Source of the DNA: a virus
IMG/VR virus record: IMGVR_UViG_3300037483_000443
Span: 71,655-135,654 of that record
Length of the DNA: 64,000 nucleotides
Direction: 5' to 3' (one strand)
Part shown: positions 30,348 to 46,824 of the stretch, piece by piece
Position numbering within the stretch: position 1 is the stretch's first letter
Layout: every line of letters starts with the position of its first letter
Position numbers and translations under genes: made by a program
The notes under the pieces: generated by a model
The model's database searches: none
The model's input: the letters and a program-made list of their open reading frames with translations, nothing else
What the model was told of the DNA's origin: nothing

Positions 30348-30422
30348 TGGCAGCCCCTCCCAGGGTCGAACTGGGGTCTACTGAGTCAGAGTCAGTCATC
30401 TTAGCCGTTAGACGAAGAGGCA
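30348..30422 (-). tRNA. tRNA-Gln(CUG)
   Basis: loop CTCTGAC, CCA. Confidence 0.85.
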
Positions 30423-30426
30423 ATTG

Positions 30427-30497
30427 AAGCAGAGAAGAAATCACGGTGGGTGTTAGTCGATTAAAAGGCGAAGTAACCCATTGCTACACATCTGCTT
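30427..30497 (-). ncRNA. WUACUUCG-core RNA, copy 1 (minimal)
   Basis: AAGCAGA/TCTGCTT stem, TGTGTAG, TGGG-TTACTTCG...CCCA. Confidence 0.7.
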
Positions 30498-30571
30498 GGT
30501 GCTTGGAAAGGGAATCGAACCCTAGGTCTGAGAGTTATCGGCTCTCTGTTCTACCATTGAACTATCCAAGC
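30497..30571 (-). tRNA. tRNA-Ile(GAU)
   Basis: loop CCGATAA (C33), CCA. Confidence 0.8.
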
Positions 30572-30573
30572 AT

Positions 30574-30647
30574 TGGGGTGAATCGGGGAATCGAACCCTC
30601 GCTTTCTGATTCACAGTCAGAAGTGCTACCACTACATCAGATCCACC
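30574..30647 (-). tRNA. tRNA-His(GUG)
   Basis: loop CTGTGAA, G-1, CCA. Confidence 0.85.
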
Positions 30648-30657
30648 GTTGAACAAC

Positions 30658-30734
30658 TGGTAGCCCCTACTGGATTCGAACCAGTGACCTATGCCTTATC
30701 AAGACACCGCTCTGGCCAACTGAGCTAAGAGGCT
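30658..30734 (-). tRNA. tRNA-Ile(GAU)
   Basis: loop TTGATAA, CCA. Confidence 0.88.
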
Positions 30735-30742
30735 ATTGAATA

Positions 30743-30869
30743 ACGATCGAATCGATATGACGGGAATCGAACCCGCGTCTCCCTCATCAAGAGGGCGCCT
30801 GATCCACTAGGCTACATGTCTCTTCATTCATCAAAGGATTGCCGTCCCTCTCAAACCAAAGTCGATCGT
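30743..30869 (-). ncRNA. tRNA-like RNA with 5-nt anticodon loop inside an outer helix
   Basis: D arm, CCCTC-TTGAT-GAGGG, T arm GCGGG-TTCGATT-CCCGT, no CCA; ACGATCGA/TCGATCGT closes the unit. Confidence 0.55.
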
Positions 30870-30925
30870 GGGCTACTGAAACATTCCAAATAGTCGGCAA
30901 ACGTCAGAGGGTGCTTTTCGTAACT

Positions 30926-31001
30926 TGGTGGGAGCACACGGTGACGATCCGTGACTCTTAGGGTAAAAGCCTAATGTGCAGAGCCGCTACACTATACTCC
31001 C
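30926..31001 (-). tRNA. tRNA-Lys(UUU)
   Basis: loop CTTTTAC, T loop ATCGTCA, CCA. Confidence 0.8.
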
Positions 31002-31033
31002 ATTTCATAATAGAAATAATTTCTGTTACTTTT

Positions 31034-31109
31034 TGGTGGGTGCCGAGAGAATCGAACTCTCATCTGGCGGATTAAGAGTCCGCTGTAATGGCCGTTATAC
31101 GAGGCACCC
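31034..31109 (-). tRNA. tRNA-Lys(CUU)
   Basis: GCGGA-CTCTTAA-TCCGC, CCA. Confidence 0.88.
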
Positions 31110-31112
31110 AAA

Positions 31113-31234
31113 TGGTAGAGATAAAATTGTCAGAGGTAACACTGCTTTCGCAGTTTGATGGGCTTGAACCATCTCATAATCGGGATATCTTCCCGGTCAC
31201 TTTTCCGAAGTAACTCTAAACGTTGCAACTACCA
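31113..31234 (-). ncRNA. WUACUUCG-core RNA, copy 2 (cargo with T-arm)
   Basis: TGGTAG/CTACCA stem, TAGAG-TTACTTCG...CTCTG, cargo GATGG-TTCAAGC-CCATC. Confidence 0.7.
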
Positions 31235-31235
31235 A

Positions 31236-31312
31236 GGTCTCTCGTGAAGGATTTGAACCTTCATTGTTCTACGTCCCAAACGTAGTGCCATACCAGGTTA
31301 GGCGAACGAGAG
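31236..31312 (-). tRNA. tRNA-Pro(UGG)
   Basis: loop TTTGGGA, ends CC-T. Confidence 0.85.
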
Positions 31313-31335
31313 ATAACTACTGCAATTTCCTGTGT

Positions 31336-31410
31336 TGGAACTCCCAACCGGATTCGAACCGGTATCTTCACGCTGAGAACGTAACGACCTAGCCGTTAGT
31401 CGATGAGAGT
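31336..31410 (-). tRNA. tRNA-Glu(CUC)
   Basis: loop TTCTCAG, CCA. Confidence 0.8.
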
Positions 31411-31462
31411 ATGGTGTCTATGTACTTCGGTTTGAGCAAACTGGCCCATAGACATGCATAAC

Positions 31463-31537
31463 TGGTCAGGACGGAGGGACTCGAACCCTCATCGTCTTCG
31501 TTCCGAACAAAGTAGCCAACCTTTGACCCACGTCCTG
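31463..31537 (-). tRNA. tRNA-Pro(CGG)
   Basis: loop TTCGGAA (A37), CCA. Confidence 0.8.
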
Positions 31538-31545
31538 ATGTAAAG

Positions 31546-31618
31546 TCCGACGTCCTAAGCCACTATGACGACAGTCAGCATTACCTGGACCGCCGGGATT
31601 CGAACCCGGGTTTTCGGA
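31546..31618 (-). ncRNA. circularly permuted tRNA module (T arm - closed acceptor - D arm)
   Basis: TCCGA..CCGGG-TTCGAAT-CCCGG-CGGTC..GACTG-TCGTCATAGTGGCTTAGGACG-TCGGA. Confidence 0.7.
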
Positions 31619-31619
31619 A

Positions 31620-31693
31620 GGTGGAGGCCCACGGTATCGCACCGTTGTAGTCAAAAATCTTGCAAGGATTTTCCGCAGCCTTCTGCTGCCCCC
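31620..31693 (-). tRNA. atypical tRNA-Ala(UGC), reduced D arm
   Basis: G3-U70 acceptor, GCAG-AAGG-CTGC mini D arm, loop CTTGCAA, T loop TGCGATA; overlapped by endonuclease stop. Confidence 0.65.
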
Positions 31694-32370
31694 AATTGTT
31701 TGATAACTCTTCCCTTTCGCCACCCTTCAGGAATAGAGTCAGTTTTATTGATACATTTACTTTCTACTTCATTTGTGATCCACATCAGACCAAAACGTGA
31801 ATTCTTTTCACCCTGTTGATGGTTATTCTGTTTGAAGGATTCTTTTCTCTTGATCATCGTTTCAGGAGAAGACAAAGCTTTAAGACCGGATTGACAACCT
31901 TTAACTCTTGCTTCTCGATTTGTAATCCAAGATCTTTTAATATGTCCACTCTTACTAACTGCTTTGCCGAACTTTTGCTTAAATTCAGGATCTTTCATTC
32001 TCTCTAAGAATTTAAGCTTGCATTTATCGTTGCGCATTTTATACTGCTCTTTGGTAAGACGTATGTCTCCACCACCAAGAGACAAATTCATGCACATTGA
32101 ATCTCTCAGCATCTTTTCTGTGATCACTTCAGCTTCTCTCTTCTTAAGAGATTCACGATCAGGGAGAAACTCCAAGATCTCTAACTTGAAGTTCTCACGA
32201 CCATGCTTCTTGATCGAATGCCACAAACGAGTTCCCGATCCGACATAACCATCTTCAAGAGAATCTGTTGAGTGCATCCCGTAGTAGAACTTACCGTTCA
32301 CCTGACATGTTGTTTTATAGATGAAGTGGTACTTCTTGGGATTAGTGTACCAGTTCTGTTTCTTTGACAT
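31651..32370 (-). CDS. GIY-YIG (Seg-like) homing endonuclease
   Basis: FIYKTT...FYYGMHST...YVGSG...HG.ENF; C-terminal G..WITN...IPEGWRKGR; ATAAATA at 32392-32398. Confidence 0.88.
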   Translation of the reverse strand: MSKKQNWYTNPKKYHFIYKTTCQVNGKFYYGMHSTDSLEDGYVGSGTRLWHSIKKHGRENFKLEILEFLPDRESLKKREAEVITEKMLRDSMCMNLSLGGGDIRLTKEQYKMRNDKCKLKFLERMKDPEFKQKFGKAVSKSGHIKRSWITNREARVKGCQSGLKALSSPETMIKRKESFKQNNHQQGEKNSRFGLMWITNEVESKCINKTDSIPEGWRKGRVIKQLGAAEGCGKSLQDF

Positions 32371-32422
32371 CTCACTATACTCCTTTGAGAGTATTTATGT
32401 GAGAGCATCAAAAAAAAATTAC

Positions 32423-32497
32423 GGTGGAGGTAGGGAGGATCGAACTCCCGACATTATGCTTGCAAAGCATACGCTCTCCCAGCTGAGCTAATCCCCC
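32423..32497 (-). tRNA. tRNA-Ala(UGC)
   Basis: G3-U70, loop TTTGCAA, ends CC-G. Confidence 0.85.
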
Positions 32498-32503
32498 ATA
32501 TGA

Positions 32504-32570
32504 CGGCGCTCTACCATTGAGCTACACCTAGTTACCTAAGCGCTGGGAATCGAACCCAGAGTCTCCGCCG
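32504..32570 (-). ncRNA. circularly permuted tRNA module
   Basis: CGGCG..CTGGG-TTCGATT-CCCAG-CGCTTAG-GTAA-CTAGGTG-TAGCTCAATGGTAGAG-CGCCG. Confidence 0.78.
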
Positions 32571-32646
32571 GTCTCTCATGGCAGATTCGAACTGCCGTTA
32601 TGCTTGCACCCCATGCAAGTGCCATACCAGACTAGGCGAATGAGAG
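32570..32646 (-). tRNA. tRNA-Pro(GGG)
   Basis: loop ATGGGGT, ends CC-G. Confidence 0.82.
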
Positions 32647-32654
32647 ATAGACGT

Positions 32655-32736
32655 TCCAGTGCTCTGCCGTTGAGCTACCGCTAGGACGGCTTTAAACCGT
32701 TTCCCGGCAGTCTGGGATCGAACCAGAATCGCTGGA
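32655..32736 (-). ncRNA. circularly permuted tRNA module
   Basis: TCCAG..TCTGG-TTCGATC-CCAGA, extended closed acceptor, TAGCTCAACGGCAGAGCA-CTGGA. Confidence 0.75.
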
Positions 32737-32811
32737 GGTGCGCCCGGTCGGAATCGAACCGACATCTACGGTTTTTCAAACCGTCACCTGAACCATCACG
32801 GTCACAGACGC
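32737..32811 (-). tRNA. tRNA-Phe(GAA)
   Basis: loop TTGAAAA, ends CC-T. Confidence 0.8.
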
Positions 32812-32815
32812 ATGT

Positions 32816-32921
32816 AAGTAGAGTTAAAGTTACTGAGAGAGTTGCCACCAAGCGGCGTCCTCGGGATGGCCCAAGGATTGGAGTCGAACCAACGAAGTAT
32901 CTCTTAGCTACGCAGCTACTT
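32816..32921 (-). ncRNA. WUACUUCG-core RNA, copy 3 (cargo with T-arm)
   Basis: AAGTAG/CTACTT stem, TGCGTAG, AAGAG-ATACTTCG-TTGG-TTCGACT-CCAA...CTCT. Confidence 0.72.
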
Positions 32922-32995
32922 GGTCGCGATCCCCGGTTACGATCCGAGTATTAGTCCTTATGAGAGACCCGTGATAGCCAGTTCACTAGATCGCG
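32921..32995 (-). tRNA. tRNA-Met(CAU)
   Basis: loop CTCATAA, T loop ATCGTAA, CCA. Confidence 0.75.
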
Positions 32996-32996
32996 A

Positions 32997-33071
32997 TGGT
33001 CCGCCCACCTGGAATCGAACCAGGGTTACAAGTTTAGAAGACTCGTGTATTTTCCACTATACGATGGACGG
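32997..33071 (-). tRNA. tRNA-Arg(UCU)
   Basis: loop CTTCTAA, CCA. Confidence 0.85.
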
Positions 33072-33073
33072 AT

Positions 33074-33146
33074 TGGTTGCGGTCGCCGGTGACGCTCCGG
33101 TTCTAGGGGATATGAACCCCTCGTGGCACTTTTCCACTACCCCGCG
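33074..33146 (-). tRNA. initiator tRNA-fMet(CAU)
   Basis: C1:A72 mismatch, GGG/CCC in anticodon stem, loop TTCATAT, CCA. Confidence 0.8.
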
Positions 33147-33219
33147 GTCAGTGCGACAGGACTCGAACCTGCATCGTCTTCGTTCCAAACAAAGTGATCA
33201 ACCTTTGACCCACACACTG
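33146..33219 (-). tRNA. tRNA-Pro(UGG)
   Basis: loop TTTGGAA (A37); paralogue of 31463-31537; ends CC-G. Confidence 0.8.
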
Positions 33220-33230
33220 ATAGTTACTGC

Positions 33231-33306
33231 TGGCGCTCCTAGGGGGAGTCGAACCCCTCTTTGCTGAGTTGAAAGCCCAGTGTCCTAACCGGTAGACGAT
33301 AGGAGC
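33231..33306 (-). tRNA. tRNA-Glu(UUC)
   Basis: loop CTTTCAA, CCA. Confidence 0.88.
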
Positions 33307-33311
33307 ATAAT

Positions 33312-33386
33312 TGGCGACCCGTGCGAGACTCGAACTCGCTTCCGATGCTAGACAGGCATCTATAATACCCTATATACGAACAGGCC
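33312..33386 (-). tRNA. tRNA-Asp(GUC)
   Basis: loop CTGTCTA, G73, CCA. Confidence 0.85.
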
Positions 33387-33388
33387 AT

Positions 33389-33472
33389 AATCAGAGAAAA
33401 GATCGGCAAGAGTGACTGGCTTTCGCCAAGTTTTCCATAAACGAAGTAACTCTCATTCCTACGCATCTGATT
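33389..33472 (-). ncRNA. WUACUUCG-core RNA, copy 4
   Basis: AATCAGA/TCTGATT stem, TGCGTAG, GAGAG-TTACTTCG...TTGGC-GAAA-GCCAG..CTCTT. Confidence 0.72.
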
Positions 33473-33545
33473 GGTACTGCGTACGGGAATCGAACCCGTC
33501 TCGTCGGCTTGAAGGGCCGCGGATCTCCCAGAAATCCAACGCAGT
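33472..33545 (-). tRNA. tRNA-Glu(UUC) with C33
   Basis: CGGC-CCTTCAA-GCCG, CCA. Confidence 0.7.
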
Positions 33546-33594
33546 ATGGTTCACTTGAATTTGTATAGACGCGCAAGTGATGTTCGCGCCGTTG

Positions 33595-33669
33595 TGGCGG
33601 GCTAGAGGGGAGTCGAACCCCCTTGTTGTGATAGACAGTCACACATAATAACCGGTATATGACTAACCC
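33595..33669 (-). tRNA. tRNA-Asp(GUC)
   Basis: loop CTGTCTA, CCA. Confidence 0.85.
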
Positions 33670-33674
33670 ATGTT

Positions 33675-33751
33675 TGGCTCCCCAGGCTGGATTCGAACCA
33701 ACGACCTAGTGATTAACAGTCACTCGCTACTACCGACTGAGCTACTGGGGA
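33675..33751 (-). tRNA. tRNA-Asn(GUU)
   Basis: loop CTGTTAA, CCA. Confidence 0.9.
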
Positions 33752-33827
33752 ATTGTTTGGCGGTGTTCGTGTGAATCTTGACCGTAGTCAAGAACCATGC
33801 TTAACTAGTCGCATGTCATGTAACACC

Positions 33828-33920
33828 GGGCTCCCCAGGCAGGAGTCGAACCTGCATACCGTTCAAGACGGACTACGGCTGATTAACAGTCAGCTCTCTT
33901 ACCACACAGAGTCCCGGGGA
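33828..33920 (-). tRNA. tRNA-Asn(GUU) with long variable arm
   Basis: loop CTGTTAA, variable region with CCGT-CTTGA-ACGG, ends CC-C. Confidence 0.75.
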
Positions 33921-33947
33921 ATTGTATTACTACTGCTTATTGCAGTT

Positions 33948-34022
33948 TGGACCCCCGTACAGGAATCGAACCTGTGTCTTGGCGTTCGTAGCACCACGCA
34001 TTTTCCACTATACGAACGGGAG
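33948..34022 (-). tRNA. tRNA-Arg(ACG)
   Basis: loop CTACGAA, CCA. Confidence 0.85.
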
Positions 34023-34026
34023 TTAT

Positions 34027-34103
34027 TGGTGCCTGGTGAAGGACTCGAACCTTCATAATCCACTTTGTAAGAGTGGTGGCTAACCTCTCACCGTCAACCA
34101 GGC
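34027..34103 (-). tRNA. tRNA-Val(UAC)
   Basis: loop CTTACAA, CCA. Confidence 0.82.
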
Positions 34104-34340
34104 AAAAATTTGATGACAGAAAAATCGTCATCGAACGTTCCTTTTATCACCCTCGGTGGGGATCAATCCAGATAAATGAAGACCATCGTCTTCAACCACG
34201 CCCTCATTATGGAGTCCTTTATTTTGAGTGCCGGACGCGATCGCGTTCCGCATTAGCACTTTACTACGTACAGCTTTGAAAATGATCAAGGGACCTTTTA
34301 AGGTCCCTCGCAGTTGGATTCTACTTCTTGTTAGATCTAG

Positions 34341-34493
34341 TTAATCACCGGATCCAGCTCCAATTGCGAGGACTTTTGCATTTCTTGCATCATTATCCAT
34401 CACTTCAGGTCGATTTGTTCGTTCAAAGCAAATCTCTACCTGCTTAGGTGTTGGTGTTGGTTGATGCGCAAATTTTATTGCAAAAGTTTTCAT
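34341..34493 (-). CDS. 50 aa ORF ahead of the tRNA array
   Basis: MKTFAIKFAHQPTPTPKQ...GAGSGD*, ATAAATA immediately upstream, hairpin AGGGACCTT/AAGGTCCCT at 34289-34308 downstream. Confidence 0.4.
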   Translation of the reverse strand: MKTFAIKFAHQPTPTPKQVEICFERTNRPEVMDNDARNAKVLAIGAGSGD

Positions 34494-34652
34494 AATGTTA
34501 TTTATGGTTGAGCAATCTTTTCCAAAAAGTTAGTTCCACGAGGGAGCATTAAGAGTGGGACGTCAACCCGAAGGTATCAGTACGACCACTTTCAATATTT
34601 CCTCAGTGTAAGAGTATTGTATCACAGACTCTTACAAAAGTAAACATATTTG

Positions 34653-34809
34653 TTGAAGATGTAAAGCACGATAATCTCTCCGCTTTACCGCTAAGCTACC
34701 AGTCCACTATTGTGTCCCAGGTCGGGGTTGAACCGACGACTGACTCTGATCTCTTATCGTCCGCGCGAACTTTAAGAAACTGCAAGATTGTCGTGCTTTA
34801 CATCTTCAA
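34653..34809 (-). ncRNA. permuted tRNA module closed by a 25-bp helix
   Basis: TTGAAGATGTAAAGCACGA(C/T)AATCT inverted repeat enclosing GTCGG-TTCAACC-CCGAC and TAGCTTAGCGGTAAAGC; promoter at 34829-34858. Confidence 0.7.
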
Positions 34810-35022
34810 TTTCGTTTACCGTAAGAGAATTGTAACATAAGTCTCTTCAAAAGTAAACATATTTGTTGCTTAGTTCTTGGTACCGTTGAGCAAGAGTTTT
34901 CACTCTCTTCTTTATCCGGAACTCCGACGAATCGGCTCCGCGCTACTGCGTACTCGGTTTGTGGGTAAGGACTCGAACCTCACTATACATTACACCTACC
35001 GTAGGTGTCATACCACAAAATT

Positions 35023-35170
35023 TGGGTCGACATTACGGAATCGAACCGTCCAGCTTCGTTAGTTCGGTACTCTCTAGCAGTCTTATCTGCTCCGTAGGCT
35101 TACCGCTACGTTGAAGTCTCTATCGCCGCCTGGAACCACCTGTCTCGGTATTTCCTTTCGGATCCACCGT
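35023..35170 (-). ncRNA. Y RNA-like transcript with T arm
   Basis: 5' TGGATCCGAAAGG pairs with 3' TCGACCCA leaving a bulged C; ACGG-TTCGATT-CCGT; promoter at 35177-35205. Confidence 0.45.
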
Positions 35171-35218
35171 TTGAACATTATATCAGGAAGTACCAAAAAG
35201 TAAACAACTTTGTTGAGT

Positions 35219-35722
35219 CTACTGAAACTTTTTTCGTTTGATCAAGTATTCTTTGAAGTCATTCCAAGCTTCGTCTGGAATTTGCTTACTAAGCAAAACT
35301 GTCATCATCCCACCAGCTGGGAGCTTAACATTCTCAATAATCTTGGGAAAACTTCCCTTATTGAATTTTCGCGCAATCCAGTTATAGATCTTCATTCGCT
35401 TTTCTGCATGATCAGCAGCCATGAAGATGATTGCGTCTAGATCATATTCATGAATCTTAGATGAGACTCCGTTAATAACGGCGCCTAATACTTTTGCAGA
35501 ATTTTTGTTGTTCCCTGTAAGTTCAAGACTATCAATCTCTCCCTTGGATTTCAGGAACCCAACGTTAGCGATGTTGTAAGTCTTTTGATTGAACTCATAA
35601 GTTCCAGCTTCAATTCGAATTTTGTAATTCTCATCTTCAACTGTAAACTTTCCAATTGCAGTCGATCGATCAGCAGACCAGTCAACTTGAACTGTAGAGT
35701 CAAAAATTTCGTTTATCAGCAT
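35219..35722 (-). CDS. putative late/virion protein
   Basis: MLINEIFDS leader, 167 aa. Confidence 0.65.
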   Translation of the reverse strand: MLINEIFDSTVQVDWSADRSTAIGKFTVEDENYKIRIEAGTYEFNQKTYNIANVGFLKSKGEIDSLELTGNNKNSAKVLGAVINGVSSKIHEYDLDAIIFMAADHAEKRMKIYNWIARKFNKGSFPKIIENVKLPAGGMMTVLLSKQIPDEAWNDFKEYLIKRKKFQ

Positions 35723-35728
35723 GTTTGT

Positions 35729-35775
35729 CTCATTGAGAAGAGCATGAGTTGTATGCTTATGCTCTTCTCAATGAG
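35729..35775. repeat. 17-bp inverted repeat downstream of tmRNA
   Basis: CTCATTGAGAAGAGCAT...ATGCTCTTCTCAATGAG. Confidence 0.7.
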
Positions 35776-35799
35776 GAGTGGATCATTATCACCACCCTC

Positions 35800-36095
35800 A
35801 CCTATCCGCCTATTCCGGGTCTGTACGGTTACAAAGAGTCTATTGCTAGACTAGGCGGAACTTCAGCTTAGGCTGCGAGAGCCAGAGCACCATTTGCGTC
35901 ATTAGCACTTATGGTTTTGCTACGCTTAGGGCGTTCGCCTTACCCGTTGACTTTTCATTCTATCTCACCCAATCAAATCCAGGTACACCCCCATGATGGA
36001 TCTTATTGCTCGGTGGAGGTGGCGGGAATCGAACCCGCGTCTTGAGCGCCTTACCTTAAAAGGTGTCCTTTCGGACTACAACGATATTCATACAA
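35800..36095 (-). ncRNA. ssrA: two-piece (circularly permuted) tmRNA
   Basis: T arm+CACCTCC-A-CC (36041-36012) lies upstream of 5' end GGGGGTG (35992); G3-U70; tag GCT..TAA 35906-35868 = ANDANGALALAA*; promoter 36103-36131. Confidence 0.9.
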
Positions 36096-36222
36096 CAGAA
36101 GCATTATATCACAGTCTACAATAAAGTAAACATTTGGATGATTGCGAAGGAATCAACCTAGACGCAATCATTACTACTATTTATTGGCGCCTGCTCTACC
36201 AGCTGAGCTACATCGAAGATTA

Positions 36223-36403
36223 CTGAATGCTGTTAGATAGACGGATCGGATTCGAACCGATGCTTCACCTGCGCGGAGGCACCTCGCGGATCTCTTAAGC
36301 CCTTCAAATCCAATATCTGATAGCAACATTGGAATTATTCAGGCGACTAGCCTCCAGGTGTGTTTTAGGCCGCTAAACTACCGACCGTCTAAGCAGCATC
36401 CAG
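36223..36403 (-). ncRNA. tRNA-like RNA with ~90-nt insertion in the anticodon arm
   Basis: extended acceptor helix, D arm TAGTTTAGCGGCCTAAAAC, CACCTG-GAGGC...GCCTC..CAGGTG, T arm ATCGG-TTCGAAT-CCGAT; promoter 36411-36439. Confidence 0.65.
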
Positions 36404-36449
36404 TTTGATCATTATATCAGGATACTCAAGAAAGTAAACAACTTTGTTG

Positions 36450-36728
36450 CTATTTTTGACGCTTCGGCATCAATTTATCATGCACATACATTGCACAATT
36501 GATGCCGATTGCACCACCCGCAGCAAAGAACAAGAACTGTTCTAGTTGTAATCCACCTGTGGGTAATAGCTTGAAGATTACGTAGTTGAATCCTGCGATA
36601 CCGATCGAAGTGATCGTTGACAGTAGATACTTACGATGCTCGACGTTGAGCTGTTGAAATCCGGCCAAGAAGACCAGAAGGAAAGATGAAGCAAAGAGAA
36701 GTAAATTATTGAACACAACTAGCTCCAT
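36450..36728 (-). CDS. small membrane protein
   Basis: three hydrophobic helices. Confidence 0.65.
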   Translation of the reverse strand: MELVVFNNLLLFASSFLLVFLAGFQQLNVEHRKYLLSTITSIGIAGFNYVIFKLLPTGGLQLEQFLFFAAGGAIGINCAMYVHDKLMPKRQK

Positions 36729-36942: not shown

Positions 36943-36949
36943 AAAGTCA

Positions 36950-37384: not shown

Positions 37385-37386
37385 GA

Positions 37387-39620: not shown

Positions 39621-39683
39621 TCACAATTCCTCTCGGTCAGTGTTCCGAGAGTATTTATTTCATCATCAAACGATGTTTGATTT

Positions 39684-40742
39684 TTATTGCTTGGTTGAAT
39701 CTTGCAGCCAAGTTGCAGCTGTTTGACCATTACTGAAACGGTCTTCGGTGAACTCGGTCAACTCTAGAGTTGAGAGTCCTAAGTCCATCGCAACATCTAG
39801 CAGAATTTGGGTGACAACGGACGTGTCGAGACGCTGATGATTCATCATGTGCGTCTTAAGAGTAGAAGTAACCTGCGAGAAGATCTTTTTCTTATCTTCA
39901 GACGTTTTATTCGTCTTTTTGACATCTTCAAGTTCTCCTGTAAGTTCTTGAATCCGAATCTTGGCTGCATCTGCGTACGTCGAAAGTCCTTTCTTCACCC
40001 CATCAACCATGAATAGTTCATGGTCAAGTTTTTCTTTCTCGCGAGCCAGATTCACGTACTTTCGTGTAAAGCCGATCTGCAGCTTCATCTTCAGAGTGAT
40101 CATTTGATATGCCTGAAGCAGTTCTGGGAAGAGCTTCGAAGCAGTCTTGAGCATCGGGAGGAAGACATCTTCAGCTTCATCAGCATAGCTATCCATCTTG
40201 GAGATAGAGAAAACGTCAATCATCGTGGAGAGGTTGTCGTTGCGATCAAGACCTTTGACGATCGAAGCGATCAAGTCCTGGCCGATCTCGCGAATGTACT
40301 CTTCCTTGTTCTTGTGTTGTCCGACGAACTTCTTTGTCAACTTCCAGCAGATCTCAGCGATCTTTTTGCCGAAGTTATTGTAGATCTCTTCATATGAGAT
40401 GCTGTGGTCTTCTTGAACGTCATGCAACAAAGCCGCAACAATGCAAAGTTCTTCTTGCTTGTCAGTCAGACCCTTCAGTTGAGTAACAGACAGAGCAATG
40501 CGAATCTGGTGGTGGAGGCTTGGAGTGACCTTGTCTTTACGGAAACGCTCTTCAGCCGGAATTCTGAACTCGATGCGTTCGATGTATCCGAGAGCCTTGA
40601 TCGCCTTGTTGTATCCCTTCCCGATCAGGTAATACTTCAAAGCGGTCTTTTCGCGCTCATACTGAAGAGCATTCTTGAGACGCTGTTGTTTAAGGCTATC
40701 TATGTCAACACCGGATTGATCGAGAAGAGTAAAGTCAGTCAT
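39684..40742 (-). CDS. HD-domain hydrolase (SpoT/Mesh1-like) with coiled-coil tail
   Basis: RKD...P...H, ALLHDVQED, LTK, KGLDRNDN. Confidence 0.8.
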   Translation of the reverse strand: MTDFTLLDQSGVDIDSLKQQRLKNALQYEREKTALKYYLIGKGYNKAIKALGYIERIEFRIPAEERFRKDKVTPSLHHQIRIALSVTQLKGLTDKQEELCIVAALLHDVQEDHSISYEEIYNNFGKKIAEICWKLTKKFVGQHKNKEEYIREIGQDLIASIVKGLDRNDNLSTMIDVFSISKMDSYADEAEDVFLPMLKTASKLFPELLQAYQMITLKMKLQIGFTRKYVNLAREKEKLDHELFMVDGVKKGLSTYADAAKIRIQELTGELEDVKKTNKTSEDKKKIFSQVTSTLKTHMMNHQRLDTSVVTQILLDVAMDLGLSTLELTEFTEDRFSNGQTAATWLQDSTKQ

Positions 40743-40979
40743 GACAAGAAGACCTTTGCTGTGTTAGAAAAGACGTGAAGTTCAACGTTGTAGACTTTGC
40801 CACAATCACCTATATTGTCACTCCAACATACGTTATCTCCGATACGAGGAACAAAGATAGGCGTACGGGCGTCATTAGCACGAACCGTTTTGACCAGTTC
40901 ATTTTTAAAGTAGTATGTAACAACAAAGACTTGCATTTGACCTCCAATTCCAGAAAATTCATTATAACACAAGTCCCAG

Positions 40980-41013
40980 AAAAAAGAAAGGAGAGATTAC
41001 TCTCTCCTCTTTT
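40980..41013. terminator. probable terminator
   Basis: AGGAGAGA-ttac-TCTCTCCT flanked by A and T runs. Confidence 0.6.
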
Positions 41014-41027
41014 AAGCTAAGCCATGA

Positions 41028-41732
41028 TCATGGCTTAGGTGGAACTGCAGCTGCTGTGGCGTACATCTTCGACATGTCGAGACCAGAACCATCAGTAGAA
41101 GTACCGTCAGCATAGAACATGTCAACTCCTCGAGTAGCGGATGCCGCGCAGTTTAGGGTAGTGAACGCATCCTTTGCTCCTTTGCTATCATAGGTGAAGT
41201 TTACTGCATTTGAAGCCTTGATTCCCATCTGAGTAGCTACTGCCTGTGCATTCATGTTTGCCCCGATGAATAGAACTTCCCAACCGTGCTCGCGCTCGAC
41301 GTCCTTGATCATCTTTTGCAAATTTGTGTAATTGTACTCTTTACTGGAGTTCTCTTGTCCGTCAGTCAAGATCGCGACGATCGTCTTCGTATTCTTCGGA
41401 TTGTCGTTCTTGAAGCGAGATATCGTCATCCCGACGGCGTCATACAGAGCGGTCATACCTCGAGGCACGAAGGTCTTGGAGTCAAGAGCCGATACTTCAT
41501 TGAGTGGAACGTTGTTATGGACAACCAGATACTCATGGTCAAACTGCACCAGAGATAGCGTCGCCTTGCCGGGAACTGCTTTCTGTGATTCTAGGAACGA
41601 ATTAAAGCCGCCAATTGTTTCGTCTTTGATGCTATCCATTGAACCGGAACGGTCGAGGATGAAGAAGATGCGAGCATTCTGAGGCTTGGTCTTCTTGGTA
41701 ACTTTCTTCTTAGGTGTAATCATTTGTGTCAT
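41028..41732 (-). CDS. vWA-domain protein
   Basis: DRSGSM MIDAS, GMTALYDA, ILTDGQENSS, FIGAN. Confidence 0.88.
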   Translation of the reverse strand: MTQMITPKKKVTKKTKPQNARIFFILDRSGSMDSIKDETIGGFNSFLESQKAVPGKATLSLVQFDHEYLVVHNNVPLNEVSALDSKTFVPRGMTALYDAVGMTISRFKNDNPKNTKTIVAILTDGQENSSKEYNYTNLQKMIKDVEREHGWEVLFIGANMNAQAVATQMGIKASNAVNFTYDSKGAKDAFTTLNCAASATRGVDMFYADGTSTDGSGLDMSKMYATAAAVPPKP

Positions 41733-41743
41733 GTCGTCTCTCC

Positions 41744-42529
41744 TTAGTCTATGATTTGCAGCGATGTGCCACATTGTGAGCAGAATTTTGCTGCGGTTGA
41801 TCTACTGCGGTGTCCGCAAGTAGTGCATGAAGTTCTGTTACGAGTTGTTACCGTCTTTGAAACTGTCTTACCGTCGTGTTCACCCATCAGTTTCAAGATG
41901 ATCACATACTTCTGACTCTCCAGTGGAAAGTTAGTTACATTGTTGAACCCTTGATCTGAGATTGAACCCGGCGCAGTAATTCCAGAAGATGACGTGAAGA
42001 CTCCGTTGACTGTAGGATAAGACCCTACTGAAGAGCTTCCGCAATATCCACCAATCGTAGTATTGTTGTAGTAATGTGGACCAGGATCACCAGTCCCACC
42101 GCTTCTTAACAACCACTTATCACGATTCCACGGGTCATTTGGATAAGGTAACGGTGCATAGATGTTGTGGAACATCTGAATCTTCTCGTATTGGAACTCA
42201 ATGCGAACGAGACCGTCATCTACGCGAATACCTCGGTGACTTGCAACCTCAGCAGTGCGCTTGATGAACTTGAACTTATGGCCTCGATCAAGGTTGCCAC
42301 CCTTGATGAAGCGCTCTAGCTCGATGCCATCGTTAGGATTGACGACGAGTGACACTCCCTCAGTCGCATCAACGCCGTCGATTTCAACCTTAACGGAAGC
42401 ACGAACAGAATTTTTGTTCTTGATAAAGAGACTATACTCTGTGCTGAAAGGCAAGTACACTTGATCTTCAAACTCTCGAAGAACTTTTCCGTCAGCCTTG
42501 ATAGCTACTGCCAATTTGTTACTATACAT
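41744..42529 (-). CDS. hypothetical protein with C-terminal double Zn ribbon
   Basis: MYSNKL start with AAGGAG RBS; CTTCG...FCSQCG. Confidence 0.8.
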   Translation of the reverse strand: MYSNKLAVAIKADGKVLREFEDQVYLPFSTEYSLFIKNKNSVRASVKVEIDGVDATEGVSLVVNPNDGIELERFIKGGNLDRGHKFKFIKRTAEVASHRGIRVDDGLVRIEFQYEKIQMFHNIYAPLPYPNDPWNRDKWLLRSGGTGDPGPHYYNNTTIGGYCGSSSVGSYPTVNGVFTSSSGITAPGSISDQGFNNVTNFPLESQKYVIILKLMGEHDGKTVSKTVTTRNRTSCTTCGHRSRSTAAKFCSQCGTSLQIID

Positions 42530-42609
42530 TTTACTTCTCCTTAGACGCACAGGCCAAGCGTCGTGATTAAGCCTGTTTCCACGATCTGCCAACACGGTTA
42601 TTATTGATA

Positions 42610-42736
42610 GCAGATTGATGTGAGATAACCATTTTGTCCCAGAACCTGTATAATTCTTAAGATTCTTAGATATGGTCTTACCGAAATAGAGTTTTCCGGT
42701 GATAGAGTGTTGCTTTATGTAAAGATATGTAGGCAT
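42610..42736 (-). pseudogene. GIY-YIG endonuclease N-terminal remnant
   Basis: [21 protein letters not shown]...Y.GSG..W..H, near copy of the 44446 gene N-terminus. Confidence 0.7.
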
Positions 42737-43097
42737 AAAAGCTCTCATATCATGCTCCCATGGTCGACTGACTGGCAACCAAGACATAAGTCAGTTAAAG
42801 TTCGGTACTGCTACTACAAGAACACGTTGAACCAGTCCATGTTCTTTCTTATTTATGATGTCAATTTCCTGGGTAGAGCCAGTTCATAACGATCTCAATA
42901 CCGATCAAGACGATCGCGATGATTCCAACCCACTGGAGTAAGCTGTCAAAGCTGATGGTGATTGTCATCTTTGCTCCAATGCTGGAATTCAGGATTGCTC
43001 TCTATGTCTAGATCTTCTTGTGGTTGACCCACACAGATCGCGTCATTAGGACACTTCTCAAGTATCTTCATGAGCCATTCTTTGGTGATATTGAACT

Positions 43098-43394
43098 TCA
43101 TAGAAGTATGTTCTTTCCTGAGATGATTCCAGAGAGGACGCTGTCTAACCACCAGTGTGGAAACTTTTCATCGAGGTAGAGCTCATACTTGATCAGAACC
43201 CCAGCTTCAATGTCTTCTTTCCACATTGCAACATTGACGTTCAGCCATTTCTTGCCGTGGTAGAATCCGTTGTTACTTTTGGGAGTTGAGCCACCGTATG
43301 ACTCATAGTTGTATAGCTCGATGAGAGCTTCATCAGAAAAGTCTAGATTAGAGTTCTCTTCTGGATGAGCGAACATCCGATAGAGCTCGGACAT
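43098..43394 (-). CDS. hypothetical protein, start uncertain
   Basis: frame open a further 31 codons upstream to a TAA. Confidence 0.55.
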   Translation of the reverse strand: MSELYRMFAHPEENSNLDFSDEALIELYNYESYGGSTPKSNNGFYHGKKWLNVNVAMWKEDIEAGVLIKYELYLDEKFPHWWLDSVLSGIISGKNILL

Positions 43395-43563
43395 TCGAAG
43401 AAATTTACCGGAACACCCTTTTACAGAGTGACGTGGTTCACCGTTGTGGTGCTTGCGTTTAGCGATGACATAGACAACCTCCCTGAATTAAGCGGTTGGC
43501 GCCTTTTCAAGCGCCTTCCGAACTCTTTCTACCTCGGTTGGTAGATGAGATATTACTCGTTCA

Positions 43564-43767
43564 TCAAACGGCCTGGATGTTTGATGCTTGTTTGCCCTTC
43601 GGACCGGTAGTCACGTCAAACGAGACTTTCTGACCTTCCTTGAGGGATTTGAATCCGTTCATATTGATCGCAGAGAAGTGTGCGAAGAGATCATCGCTGC
43701 CATTGTCGGGCGTAATAAAGCCGAAACCCTTAGCGTCATTGAACCACTTACAAATTCCTGTTGCCAT
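43564..43767 (-). CDS. cspA: cold-shock protein
   Basis: [12 protein letters not shown] (RNP1), LFAHFSAI (RNP2), [10 protein letters not shown]. Confidence 0.95.
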
Positions 43768-44446
43768 TTTCTATTTCCTTAAAATTAACAGCTTGCACGA
43801 TTGCTTGCCGTTTCTTACATCTATCAAAGTGATAATGTTTCATAGCACTTTTTCCGCCTTTAAGACCGCAATGAGGGCACATAATTAACTCTTGCGGACC
43901 TTTCATTTTACCTTTCAATGAAGCAGAAATTTTTGCTTTTTGTTCTGCTGATTTAGGGATTCCTAATTGATTTCCCTTACCAGCAATAGATCTTATTCTT
44001 TTGCCTTCTTCAGACATTGGTCCTTTGGGTTTCCTCATTTTCTGCTTATCTTCTTCAGATCTGAGTTTACCTTTAAGGGCTGCTGATTTCTTAGCTTTGG
44101 TCTCTTCAGAATCAGGCCCACGCCGATTCACGACCGTGTGTTTCAAACCAAGAACTCCACCACCTTCAAGACCATCTTCTGGCTTTAAATTTGCCCAAGA
44201 ATCTGATTCAACAATTTCCCACATGCTAGAACACATGAGAGCAAATTCTTTGATACTGTCTTCATCAAAGAAGAGACAATACCAAATAGTCTCTACGTGT
44301 TCATATCCGTGAACTTTTAGATGACTATTCCAATAGGTTCCAGACCCATTGTACTCAAGCAGGTGTTGTTCAATCAGAGTAGATTTGCCAAAGTATAGCA
44401 AACCGGTAATTGCATGCTGTTTGATGTAAAGATAGGTTGGTTTCAT
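43748..44446 (-). CDS. GIY-YIG homing endonuclease with NUMOD3 repeats
   Basis: [29 protein letters not shown] repeats, CPHCG...HFDRCK; TATAAATA at 44452-44459. Confidence 0.85.
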
Positions 44447-44532
44447 GAAGCTATTTATAGCTTCACTACTTTACCTTTTGCTTCTTGGTTCCACCAAGTC
44501 AGAGTCAACTGACAAGATGAAGTGGTAATGCA

Positions 44533-44873
44533 GTAAACTAGAGATGAGGTCGAACAGCGCCTTACCGGCCCTCTCGGGTAAATTCTACACCTCTAGCGTA
44601 GAATCGGTATCTTGGATTAACCTTTGTCCCCAAGCTTAGGGCCACATAACCAATGGCGAGGACATACTATACCAGCATGCTCAGTTCCGGAATTATCTGG
44701 AATCAAGTTGACTTTTTCTCAGTCAACTAATGAGAGATGCTAGTTTCGAAGTGAGCTCCTACTAGGGGCCAAAATCTATTTCGAGGTTTCCCTCTTGAAG
44801 TCCAAGATTTCTCTTGGCAAGCATCATACTTCCTCAGTAGTCGAAGTATCGCTATCCAATGCAGCTAGTTTAC
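44533..44873 (-). ncRNA. WUACUUCG-core RNA, copy 5 (large ~290-nt cargo)
   Basis: GTAAACTAG/CTAGTTTAC stem, TGCATTG, TAGCG-ATACTTCG...CGCTG; multiple inner hairpins. Confidence 0.68.
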
Positions 44874-44918
44874 CGGATTCACGTAAGGGAATCGAACCCT
44901 CATCAACTGTTCGTGAAC

Positions 44919-45287
44919 TTACAACTCTTCTATCCTGACGTAGATCTTTTCGGGTGGTACCTGAAAGTACAGCAAAAAGCTTGGACAGAGCCAACCTTCT
45001 TGATTTAGAAGATCACACCAGTACTTATGCCAGATCTCAGTTTCAAGAGGTCCTAATGTATCTGACTTAATGTAATCAAGAACTACTGCGCCGTCGATCG
45101 GCTCATCGGAGATCGTCAATTGAACAGGACCTACAAATTTGTAGGTTAGCTTGTCAAGCATTTTGTCGATACCGTTGATTAGACCCTCTTTAAGAAGACC
45201 ATGAACTGGATCGTCAAATACCCACTCTTTATAAGAGAAGGCATTCATGATCTTGTATGGAAAGAGGACAAATTGTCTTATGTACAT
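44919..45287 (-). CDS. hypothetical protein
   Basis: WVFDD...L.KE..I.GID...GWLCP....YF..PP..IY; promoter 45294-45323. Confidence 0.7.
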   Translation of the reverse strand: MYIRQFVLFPYKIMNAFSYKEWVFDDPVHGLLKEGLINGIDKMLDKLTYKFVGPVQLTISDEPIDGAVVLDYIKSDTLGPLETEIWHKYWCDLLNQEGWLCPSFLLYFQVPPEKIYVRIEEL

Positions 45288-45331
45288 GGAATCATTGTAT
45301 CACAAACTCATGAGTTTGTAAACAACTTTGT

Positions 45332-45403
45332 TGGAAGCGACGTGTGGAGTCGAACCACAGGAGATAGGCTTATGAGACCTATTTGAATCCCATTCTCATC
45401 GCA
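45332..45403 (-). tRNA. atypical tRNA(CAU), reduced D arm
   Basis: GAAT-GGG-ATTC mini D arm, loop CTCATAA, 1:72 mismatch, CCA. Confidence 0.7.
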
Positions 45404-45445
45404 GGACCTACAAGTCAGAATCAACCAAACTTGTAGATGAATAGC

Positions 45446-45599
45446 TTGATGAGAAGGGTGTCGGTATGAGCTTTCAGTGCCGCTGTTTTACCATTAAACT
45501 ACACCCTCACAGTAAAGCATTACATCGGAGAGGGCACCGGGAATCGAACCACGGAACCGCGGCTTGGGATCGAAGTATCTCAAGCCTACGCAACATCAA
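45446..45599 (-). ncRNA. WUACUUCG-core RNA, copy 6, carrying a full permuted tRNA module (YrlA-like)
   Basis: TTGATG/CATCAA stem, TGCGTAG, TGAG-ATACTTCG; GCCGC-T arm-TGCCCTC..GAGGGTG-D arm-GCGGC. Confidence 0.78.
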
Positions 45600-45815
45600 A
45601 CGGATCTACAGAGCTAGAGTCAACCAACTCTGTAGACAGGGGCGTCTCACGACGTTAAACCGTTACCGCGGGGATACCGGGGTCCTACAGCATGCTGTAG
45701 GAGATTTTAAGCCGGAACTGTTGATACAAGTTGGATTCAACACTACCAGCGTATCAACCGATAGCTCCACCAACCTTGTCACTTCTTACGGCGAATGCGA
45801 AAGTGACGCAGATTC

Positions 45816-45890
45816 GGAGCGGCAGACCGGGTACGATCCGGCAACCTTGACGTTGGCAACGTCACGCTCTACCAATTGAGCTACTGCCGC
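45816..45890 (-). tRNA. tRNA-Gly(GCC)
   Basis: loop TTGCCAA, T loop ATCGTAC, ends CC-G. Confidence 0.88.
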
Positions 45891-46027
45891 ATAATGGGTT
45901 GTCACCGAACTCTTTCTTTACACTCTGAACGAATTTCTCCGGGAATGCACTTGTAAGTCACAAGATTACTTTCGGCTTCACTTACAACAACTACACACAG
46001 AATGTGCACACACTCTGCTATCACGAC

Positions 46028-46100
46028 GGTGCGGGCTAGGAGAATCGAACTCCTGACGTCTGGTTGGAAGCCAGTGGTTTTGCCATTAAACTAAGCACGC
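46028..46100 (-). tRNA. tRNA-Gly(UCC)
   Basis: loop CTTCCAA, ends CC-G. Confidence 0.85.
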
Positions 46101-46654
46101 ATTGGAGAATTTCTTCTATAGGCTACTCCGTACCTACCATCATAATGTTTGTCAATGAATCGTTTTGCCTGAGTTGAACTAAAATTCAAAATCTCTGCAA
46201 CTTGACCAACCCAACCAATCTTAGTAAAATCTATTCTTGAAAGTAATTTCAATCTTGATTCCACTACTTCATGCGTCAATGTTTTATGATTATCTAATCC
46301 GCTTCTCCCAGCCCTAAATCTCAGTTTCTTAAGAGCTTCAGGATCGTTTTTATACTTATCCAGCGTAAGTTCATAAAGATTTTTTCTTGCACCGCTTTTG
46401 ATGGCATCTTTAAGATTTTCTGAATAAGTACCCCAATACAAATGTTTTGGATTAGAACATTTTGCATTGTGACAAGCATGGCAAAGCAAAATTTTCTGGT
46501 TAGAAGCTGGTATCGTTGTTCTTAGAAAGTGAGCAAGCAATGCTCTAAAATCTTTAGAACCTCCACCAATTTCAATACACTCAGATTCAAGATCTAAATG
46601 TTTCTGTCTTTCTTCCTGTGATAACAGGATGTACACATCTAACTTCTGATACAT
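46091..46654 (-). CDS. HNH (His-Cys box-like) endonuclease
   Basis: LCHACHNAKCSNPKHLYWGTYSEN; stop lies inside tRNA-Gly. Confidence 0.8.
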   Translation of the reverse strand: MYQKLDVYILLSQEERQKHLDLESECIEIGGGSKDFRALLAHFLRTTIPASNQKILLCHACHNAKCSNPKHLYWGTYSENLKDAIKSGARKNLYELTLDKYKNDPEALKKLRFRAGRSGLDNHKTLTHEVVESRLKLLSRIDFTKIGWVGQVAEILNFSSTQAKRFIDKHYDGRYGVAYRRNSPMRA

Positions 46655-46655
46655 A

Positions 46656-46732
46656 GGTGATCAAGGATGGAATCGAGCCATCATCACCTATTTCTACAAA
46701 GAAACAGTGCTCTGCCATTGAGCTACATGATC
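46656..46732 (-). ncRNA. tRNA-like RNA with over-long anticodon stem and 4-nt loop
   Basis: normal D arm, CTGTTTCT-TTGT-AGAAATAG, T loop CTCGATT. Confidence 0.6.
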
Positions 46733-46734
46733 AT

Positions 46735-46824
46735 TGATGGAGTAAAAGTTGGCAAGAGTAACTGGCCTGAGGCCAAGTTGACGTGGAAGGTTAACGAAGT
46801 AACTCTTATCCTATGCAACCATCA
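46735..46824 (-). ncRNA. WUACUUCG-core RNA, copy 7
   Basis: TGATGG/CCATCA stem, TGCATAG, AAGAG-TTACTTCG...TTGGCC-TCA-GGCCAG..CTCTT. Confidence 0.72.

Follow-up and report, generated by a model that had tools for sequence, protein, structure and literature searches.

A tRNA array lies in the final 64 kb of the 135,654-base IMG/VR virus record IMGVR_UViG_3300037483_000443 (CheckV completeness 37%); this stretch, analysed over its whole length, is called the window here, and positions are those of the window unless another record is named. ARAGORN places 43 tRNA genes and one transfer-messenger RNA (tmRNA) gene in it, on the minus strand throughout, and Rfam at gathering thresholds reports tRNAs and the tmRNA only over the whole window. 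A blastn comparison with 50,697 deposited phage genomes found no close relative; the best placements cover about 5% of the query and are tRNAs and a homing endonuclease gene. Set into this array between positions 30427 and 46824 are seven genes that are not tRNA genes, designated e1 to e7, which an earlier note on the same DNA had described as modular RNAs with a constant handle and a swappable cargo. They are additional members of a known RNA class and no new kind of RNA: judged by sequence, structure and genomic linkage, they are very probably phage-encoded Y RNAs of the bacterial and phage YrlA/YrlB type, which would dock onto the ring-shaped protein Ro60 (Rsr/TROVE).

All seven elements lie on the minus strand, and a structural parser finds an identical order of parts in 7/7. 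From 5' to 3' these are a terminal helix (H1), one spacer nucleotide, a UGCRUAG-like word, a second helix (H2), the sequence WUACUUCG, the cargo, the H2 partner, a pyrimidine-rich strand ending in CU, and the H1 partner. H1 has at least 6 base pairs and is closed by G-C in every copy, its sequence differing from copy to copy; six aligned H1 pairs, read from the alignment rows, are standard in 7/7 copies, and minimum-energy folds also recover H1 in all seven. H2 is closed by G-C in the seven elements. The pattern TG[CT]RTAG is exact in five, the exceptions being UGCAACG in e2 and UGCAUUG in e5, and WUACUUCG is exact in 7/7, beginning with UUAC in four and AUAC in three. This last word occurs eight times in the window, always on the minus strand, the eighth time at 62786-62793, where there is no model match. 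The loop strand 3' of the cargo is of the CG..YUKUUYCU type, and the cargoes of e1 to e7 measure 18, 70, 51, 29, 282, 100 and 36 nucleotides (nt). An end-paired stem, a conserved internal loop and a second variable module, by which the Y RNA class is recognised, are thus present in all seven, as is the YUAY-type element after the second helix that characterises YrlA in Chen et al. (2014). Most elements abut tRNA genes, as the earlier note had stated: by ARAGORN coordinates five of the seven have a tRNA gene on each side at a distance of 0-4 nt, and e5 lies between two open reading frames (ORFs).

Element e1 (30427-30497, 71 nt) scores 47.3 bits (E 1.1e-11) with R2, the covariance model described below, to which the scores of the other elements refer as well. 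It consists of H1 AAGCAG/CUGCUU, the word UGUGUAG, H2 UGGG/CCCA, UUACUUCG and an 18-nt cargo without evident structure, and by its sequence it reads as a short, YrlB-like form. It shares the last base of tRNA-Ile (30497-30571), and tRNA-Gln (30348-30422) lies 4 nt past its end. Element e2 (31113-31234, 122 nt; 41.6 bits, E 6.1e-10) has H1 UGGUAG/CUACCA, the variant word UGCAACG, H2 UAGAG/CUCUG and UUACUUCG, and three hairpins form in its 70-nt cargo, of which one (GAUGG UUCAAGC CCAUC) resembles a T arm; tRNA-Pro (31236-31312) and tRNA-Lys (31034-31109) flank it. Element e3 (32816-32921, 106 nt; 53.3 bits, E 1.7e-13), between tRNA-Met (32921-32995) and tRNA-Phe (32737-32811), has H1 AAGUAG/CUACUU, UGCGUAG, H2 AGAG/CUCU and AUACUUCG; in the fold of its 51-nt cargo a T-arm-like hairpin (UUGG UUCGACU CCAA) comes first, followed by two further hairpins. 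Small hairpins fill the cargoes of e4 and e7. The former (33389-33472, 84 nt; 63.3 bits, E 1.5e-16), flanked by tRNA-Glu (33472-33545) and tRNA-Asp (33312-33386), combines H1 AAUCAG/CUGAUU, UGCGUAG, H2 UGAGAG/CUCUUG and UUACUUCG with a 29-nt cargo carrying a GGC-GAAA-GCC hairpin. The latter (46735-46824, 90 nt; 58.9 bits, E 3.4e-15) combines H1 UGAUGG/CCAUCA, UGCAUAG, H2 UAAGAG/CUCUUG and UUACUUCG with a 36-nt cargo carrying a GGCC-UCA-GGCC hairpin, and it is flanked by tRNA-Gly (46825-46909) and the tRNA at 46656-46732, whose anticodon is called with four letters.

Element e6 (45446-45599, 154 nt; 36.9 bits, E 1.6e-8) has H1 UUGAUG/CAUCAA, UGCGUAG, H2 UGAG/CUCA and AUACUUCG, and its 100-nt cargo is a permuted tRNA in which a closing stem (GCCGC/GCGGC) is followed by a T arm, a closed acceptor-like hairpin and a D arm; tRNA-Met (45332-45403) lies 42 nt downstream. 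The cargo types named in the earlier note were partly confirmed from sequence and folds: T-arm-like hairpins are found in e2 and e3 and a hairpin of the UGGC/GCCA type in e4 and e7, and the permuted tRNA of e6 is matched by the Rfam tRNA model with just 21.1 bits, at 45453-45508. Element e5 (44533-44873, 341 nt; 32.8 bits, E 2.8e-7, matched span 44536-44870) has H1 AAACUAG/CUAGUUU, the variant word UGCAUUG, H2 GAUAGCG/CGCUGUU and AUACUUCG. Its 282-nt cargo forms many hairpins, with a fold z-score of -4.29 against shuffles, and no Rfam match overlaps e5 at E ≤ 10.

For a wider sample, IMG/VR viral contigs were scanned with exact patterns, which returned at least 117 and at least 116 stretches, mostly chance matches. 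A simple helix test passed 167 of 261 motif occurrences and was too lenient, so that a stricter structural parser and then covariance models were used; the parser found the full architecture in a minority of the pattern-scan stretches, often as several tandem copies. Since MAFFT misplaced the 3' strands of copies with unlike cargo, the model was seeded from four well-aligned copies and iterated. Model R1 was searched on loci L005-L204 (among L205-L237, L230 alone was searched with R1 and R2, and L207 with Rfam) and at E ≤ 0.01 matched in 10 loci from 9 records. Rebuilding from an alignment of 28 matches gave R2, whose training included five of the seven window elements; e5 and e6 lay outside the training and are independent detections. 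On the seven elements R2 gives E values from 1.5e-16 to 2.8e-7. At E ≤ 0.1 its seven matches in the whole 135,654-base record are the seven elements and nothing else (e5 as a partial match, E 0.024). The same search of an entire related genome, G010, gave six matches. In total R2 identifies 62 copies from 15 sources, with 2-8 copies per locus.

Across the 62 copies, 93.1% of 736 cells are standard pairs, an absolute figure that favours the structure inasmuch as the alignment was fitted to the model; in slid controls, in which the 3' partner was moved by 1-3 columns, the proportion is 41-48%. Changes on both sides occur at 12/12 modelled pairs, four to six standard pair types are present at every modelled pair save two closing G-C pairs, and none of 500 shuffles matched the observed percentage paired or the covariation score. 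The slid controls together with the diversity of pair types make chance implausible, and the claim of the earlier note that helices covary around a constant loop sequence is borne out. Furthermore, mutual information revealed an extra pair between the nucleotide after UAG and the nucleotide after the H2 partner, which extends H2 to 7-8 base pairs; 60 of the 61 copies have a standard pair here (A-U 22, G-C 21, U-A 5, C-G 5). A pairing of the 5' CG with the 3' CG within the internal loop was considered and rejected, being unsupported by the alignment rows and absent from the 15 pairs of highest mutual information.

The column counts define the handle closely. On the 5' side H1 ends in G (59/60) and is followed by any nucleotide, then by U or G (45/15), G (61/62), C (54/62) and G (55/62), a variable position (U 40, A 10, C 9, G 3), A (55/62) and G (61/62). 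H2 ends in G (58/62), after which come U or A (31/25), U (62/62), A (60/62), C, U, U and C (each 62/62) and G (46/58). On the 3' side the H2 partner starts with C (58/61), followed by N, C (53/62), G (53/62), N-Y-U-K-U-U-Y, C (54/57) and U (41/46), and the H1 partner strand starts with C (59/60).

These figures also bear on two readings in which the elements would not act as RNAs of their own. Inverted-repeat-bounded insertion or recombination modules, or targets of homing endonucleases within tRNA arrays, could present the same words as protein sites on DNA; the array does contain homing endonuclease genes, two of the GIY-YIG type (31651-32370 and 43748-44446) and one of the His-Me finger type (46091-46654), and copy content differs between the window and G010. 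Such DNA-level elements are nevertheless very improbable, because G-U pairs are tolerated in both H1 and H2 among the 62 copies, which fits RNA pairing and not DNA, because every copy lies on the strand of the tRNAs and the Ro60 gene, because the cargoes include tRNA-like folds, and because bacterial YrlA RNAs of like design are expressed and Rsr-bound, according to Chen et al. (2014, PMC4201824). Decayed tRNA genes or permuted ones, and the spacer debris of a fast-evolving tRNA array, all without a function of their own, might be suspected from the T-arm-like fragments of e2 and e3, the permuted tRNA of e6 and the permuted tRNA-like modules without a handle that lie nearby. Debris would hardly be expected to keep UACUUC unchanged or almost unchanged across 62 copies drawn from unrelated phages, to uphold both helices by compensatory change, or to retain orthologs that are about 70-80% identical with compensatory changes in H1 and H2, and there is accordingly very little chance that this explanation is correct.

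Identification as Y RNAs draws support from linkage to genes of Ro60, whose family domain is TROVE. A TROVE protein above the Pfam cut-off is encoded in 10/10 tested viral records holding model matches. The gene mostly lies directly downstream of the copies; in nine of these records it is within about 2.5 kb and on the same strand, as taken from locus coordinates and sequences, the tenth being G010, and in several loci an ORF begins just after the last copy. Among control near-complete giant-phage records with chance pattern matches only, TROVE was found in 0/5, and tblastn with one TROVE protein matched 92 of the 50,697 phage records. Reference phages show the same arrangement: eight R2 matches lie directly upstream of the Ro60 gene in Caulobacter phage CcrColossus, four upstream of that gene in Xanthomonas phage Usaquen, and four around it, interleaved with tRNAs, in Arthrobacter phage Atuin. 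Many copies at TROVE-linked loci carry a permuted tRNA as cargo, with its T arm, a closed acceptor and a D arm, and the four reference-phage loci inspected carry no Y RNA annotation.

A second line of support is that published Y RNAs carry the same handle. Chen et al. (2014, PMC4201824) report that 254 bacteria and 22 phages have YrlA RNAs adjacent to Ro60, with a motif GNCGAAN0-1G near the 5' end, proposed for recognition by Rsr, and a conserved YUAY. Three R2 matches in the CcrColossus locus (L249 2561-2694, 2232-2396 and 2060-2198) coincide with putative YrlA at 108824-108959, 109117-109288 and 109330-109457 in Table S2 of that survey, so that the handle of the window elements is the handle of published phage YrlAs; the other five of the eight matches upstream of Ro60 are absent from the table. 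The comparison with Ro60-bound Y RNAs that the earlier note had drawn, as a handle-plus-effector design, was therefore right, whereas the novelty implied by its remark that the core does not match is not supported. The RefSeq annotation of CcrColossus places a 'tRNA-Gln' at L249 2236-2303 (109217-109284), inside one of these Y RNAs (R2 2232-2396, putative YrlA 109117-109288 in Table S2); this feature probably represents the tRNA-like part of the Y RNA, not a tRNA gene.

At the level of letters, the published CcrColossus YrlAs read GGCGUAG at the place of the motif, and the consensus of the 62 copies is (U/G)GCG(U/a/c)AG, H2, (U/A)UAC. UGCRUAG is a one- to two-letter variant of the YrlA motif GNCGAAN0-1G, and WUAC corresponds to its YUAY, as both are given in PMC4201824. 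The aligned words of the seven are UGCGUAG (e3, e4, e6), UGUGUAG (e1), UGCAUAG (e7), UGCAACG (e2) and UGCAUUG (e5), each at least one letter off the published motif, and an A at the variable position, giving CGAAG, is found in 10 of the 62 copies. The spacing agrees with the Rfam YrlA consensus (GGCGAAUG, 2 nt, a 7-nt helix strand, CUAc), and a positional mapping of the handle onto that consensus may be proposed from the sequences; the Infernal alignment of the YrlA model to one copy has a shifted register with several mismatched pairs. Significant full-length matches to the Rfam YrlA model below threshold were obtained at L045 (44.5 bits), L250 (50.0 and 39.6), L249 (42.3), L199 (36.7) and L015 (33.3), related copies with tRNA-like cargo scoring 30-50 bits over the full length against a gathering score of 69.

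The partner gene of the window elements was sought through G010, a complete 345-kb relative collinear with window 30-49 kb, the aligned pieces being 68-98% identical; its segment 226500-242500 (L253) was compared with window 30000-47000. G010 carries its six R2 matches at 227-241 kb in a like tRNA context, together with an e5 ortholog, and a TROVE ORF of 516 amino acids at about 332 kb (89.9 bits), on the same strand as the Y RNA cluster and 91 kb past it. The window's own record ends 17 kb past its cluster. Orthologs of e3, e4, e6 and e7 stand at L253 2712-2820, 4548-4632 (L058), 14145-14265 (L059) and 14817-14904, that of e3 at the corresponding place; identities among the orthologs are about 70-80%, with compensatory changes in H1 and H2. 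In the e4 ortholog, for example, the second H1 pair has changed from A-U to G-C with both sides altered. In the e5 ortholog the handle is kept and H2 is altered compensatorily, and the consensus fold of the two e5 sequences has 64 pairs, ten of them changed on both sides, which is weak evidence with n = 2. A search for more orthologs of the e5 cargo by its conserved block found the G010 relative only, plus two unrelated chance matches.

Turnover of Y RNA genes was also observed between the two genomes. In G010 there is no R2 match between tRNA-Pro(tgg) and tRNA-Lys(ctt), the site of e2, and an extra copy at L253 14608-14736, beside tRNA-Gly, has no counterpart in the window.

Several results weigh against the assignment to Y RNAs. 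No TROVE protein was found at E ≤ 1 and no RtcB gene in the window's own 135,654-base record; R2 has no match in the Ro60 locus of crAss001, nor over the whole record of Thermus phage phiLo, the sole phage with measured Yrl-Ro60 binding. Strict GNCGAAN0-1G is found in 0/7. A change of the first A of CGAA to U weakens binding about four-fold in phiLo, where affinity is raised three- to four-fold by the CGAA motif of the internal bulge (PMC12135203), and U is the commonest nucleotide at that place in the window family. A full tRNA-like domain (T arm, closed acceptor-like stem, D arm) is present in e6 only, one of seven; e2 and e3 have a T-arm-like hairpin without the rest of the domain, and e1, e4 and e7 have none. 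Finally, the Rfam YrlA model (RF02553) reaches its gathering score of 69 bits on 0/7, with no YrlA match overlapping them at E ≤ 10. The earlier note had named a full match to a described Rfam family as the outcome that would speak against it: the seven have none at threshold, so that formally this outcome is absent; related copies with tRNA-like cargo do have significant full-length YrlA matches below threshold.

Part of this evidence would suit a family independent of Ro60, in which the handle is bound by another phage or host protein or serves as a processing or stability cassette, its likeness to YrlA reflecting shared tRNA-like descent. In favour of such a family are the missing TROVE gene in the 135-kb record, the distance of 91 kb that separates the TROVE gene of G010 from the cluster, the absence of strict GNCGAA from the seven and the blank result in phiLo, whose Yrl RNAs bind Ro60. 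It is improbable all the same, as the handle stands beside TROVE genes in nine of ten metagenomic records and in three reference phages, as the published CcrColossus YrlAs have this same handle, and as none of the five control records encodes TROVE. The lack of a match in phiLo indicates that its Yrl RNAs belong to a different handle subfamily. The statement of the earlier note that the window holds no Ro60/TROVE gene holds for the whole record and would follow from the incompleteness of that record, which stops 17 kb after the cluster when the Ro60 gene of G010 lies 91 kb past its own; the gene is most likely encoded on the missing part of the 37%-complete genome.

A different form of the partner was tried as well, namely a split Ro60 made of the vWA ORF at 41028-41774 and the 347-amino-acid ORF upstream of it. 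It was rejected, with no TROVE match and no similarity to the G010 Ro60, and with a zinc ribbon at the end of the upstream protein. The pair itself (41028-42787, minus strand) comprises a vWA protein of 248 amino acids (PHROG 7371) preceded by the protein with a C-terminal zinc ribbon, which has no family, and it is kept in G010 at about 70% identity.

Based on the assignment as Y RNAs, a mechanism can be proposed. H1, the internal loop (5' N-UGCRUAG, 3' CG..YUKUUYCU), H2 and WUACUUCG would form the constant Ro60-binding module, and the cargo would be the effector module, which in e6 is a full tRNA mimic and in e5 a domain of 282 nt; e2 and e3 each have a T-arm-like hairpin accompanied by others, and e4 and e7 a small hairpin. 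The Y RNA genes are probably co-transcribed with the surrounding tRNAs and would be released by tRNA maturation, RNase P cutting at the downstream tRNA's 5' end and the upstream tRNA being processed at its 3' end. Release by tRNA processing, put forward in the earlier note, is plausible: the genes are packed between tRNAs, which suggests processing together with them and fits M. smegmatis, in which YrlA and YrlB are processed from a single precursor and YrlA is a substrate of RNase P (Chen et al. 2014, PMC4201824). If Deinococcus Yrn1 and the phiLo Yrl RNAs are a guide, each Y RNA would then act on the phage Ro60 as a tether or a gate, and the different cargoes might direct Ro60 to different partners, for example host PNPase or tRNA-recognising enzymes. 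A bolder proposal, offered tentatively and rather doubtful, is that in a clade of phages of about 350 kb the Y RNA genes left the Ro60 locus for tRNA operons, so that one Ro60 is loaded through co-processing with at least seven effector-varied Y RNAs including a 341-nt member. If so, the set could link Ro60 with several different enzymes of the host or the phage, so as to survey or repair the phage tRNA pool, and the 282-nt cargo of e5, conserved, structured and matching no known RNA, could be a new functional RNA domain.

The identity of seven conspicuous non-tRNA genes in a giant-phage tRNA array is very probably settled at the level of RNA class, and it modestly extends what is described for that class. 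Characterised Y RNAs measure 80-130 nt according to Chen et al. (2014, PMC4201824); seven different effector modules can occur in a single phage, one of them far beyond that range. Y RNA genes can lie about 90 kb from Ro60 and within tRNA operons, an arrangement that the design of the same survey excluded, its methods stating that candidates overlapping tandem tRNA genes in the annotation were left out and that only those within 4 kb of Ro60 were reported; copies in tRNA arrays like those of the window would consequently not be in its list. Dispersal in a tRNA array far from Ro60, seven different cargoes and the 341-nt e5 are what is less ordinary here. Standard tools miss such genes: the Rfam YrlA model calls none of the seven, the reference loci are unannotated, and one CcrColossus copy is labelled tRNA-Gln. 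Either R2 or the motif (U/G)GCG(U/A)AG ... WUACUUCG ... CG..UUYCU could be used for annotating phage Y RNAs.

The array contains two more elements that are not tRNA genes, at 32498-32569 and 32651-32739 on the minus strand. Both lack the Ro60-type handle and resemble a permuted tRNA, with a T arm, a closed acceptor hairpin, a D arm and a short closing stem; their Rfam YrlA scores are 30.1 bits (model positions 23-86) and 16.6 bits, respectively. They may represent tRNA mimics devoid of a handle, or else tRNA genes in permuted form. The three homing-endonuclease-like genes interspersed with the tRNA and Y RNA genes are on the minus strand too; one of the two GIY-YIG genes carries NUMOD3, and the one at 31651-32370 is about 75% identical over about 150 nt to homing endonuclease genes of T4-like phages by blastn. 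In T4, a GIY-YIG homing endonuclease gene, segB, is annotated within the tRNA cluster.

Other genes of the window concern translation and RNA. The phage-encoded tmRNA (35772-36135, minus strand) scores 104.4 bits with the permuted tmRNA model and 87.8 bits with the beta-proteobacterial one, its tag reading ANDANGALALAA according to ARAGORN. A tRNA with anticodon CUA, labelled Pyl by ARAGORN and hence amber-reading, lies at 10038-10114; the tRNA at 46656-46732 has the four-letter anticodon call ttgt; and a 151-amino-acid ORF with RF-1 and partial PCRF domains lies at 20396-20851. Together these three are a hint that the phage may reassign a stop codon or suppress frameshifts. Genes for RNA and tRNA handling are dense, with an RNase T-like exonuclease, a Thg1-like tRNA-His guanylyltransferase, Pth2, a 2H phosphoesterase (weak match) and a CCA-adding/poly(A) polymerase head joined to a C-terminal Lar domain, and a homologue of Gad1, the Gabija anti-defence protein, is also encoded; the set occupies 2711-3346, 9536-10021, 11652-12446, 12428-13735, 52464-52952 and 21084-22142.

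Known RNAs outside the YrlA/YrlB type were compared as well. Ribozymes, riboswitches and other Rfam families give no match on the seven at gathering thresholds or at E ≤ 10. The species 1 and species 2 RNAs of T4 (rnaC, rnaD) are similar in being small stable RNAs of unassigned function in a phage tRNA cluster beside a GIY-YIG homing endonuclease gene; they were rejected as relatives, since the T4 sequences contain neither UGCRUAG nor UACUUCG. T4 is not known to encode Ro60. Metazoan-type Y RNAs were not recovered: the bulged-helix sequence GGUCCGA is absent from the seven, and there is no Rfam Y_RNA match at E ≤ 10 in either of the two stretches that hold the elements. The 3' strand of the metazoan bulged helix is UUGACU. 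A broader likeness exists in that Deinococcus radiodurans Yrn1 and the metazoan Y RNAs (RF00019) are modular, with a stem for binding Ro60 and an effector loop by which Ro60 is tethered to a second protein, PNPase in the case of Deinococcus.

Among phage RNAs, Yrl1 and Yrl2 of phiLo resemble the window elements in being phage-encoded, in their succession of stem, internal bulge and stem, and in their CGAA motif, according to NAR 2025 (PMC12135203), which also reports in-vitro binding to the phage Ro60 and complexes with host PNPase; they differ in that their genes lie directly upstream of the Ro60 gene. YrlB RNAs of Salmonella Typhimurium and M. smegmatis (Chen et al. 2013, 2014) are short and Rsr-bound, have a GNCGAA-type motif and no full tRNA-like domain, and occur in tandem with YrlA. 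Elements e1-e4 and e7 resemble them in an architectural sense only, and the M. smegmatis YrlB has a possible T arm (Chen et al. 2014). From YrlA the window elements differ in the word, which is mostly CGUAG where YrlA has CGAAG, in that six of seven are without the full tRNA-like domain, and in being embedded in a tRNA array with no Ro60 gene within 4 kb, that of G010 lying on the same strand but 91 kb away. With YrlA (RF02553; structure 10.1101/312249) they share paired ends, a purine-rich word of the GNCGAA type, a second helix, YUAY and an effector module, which in e6 is a permuted tRNA.

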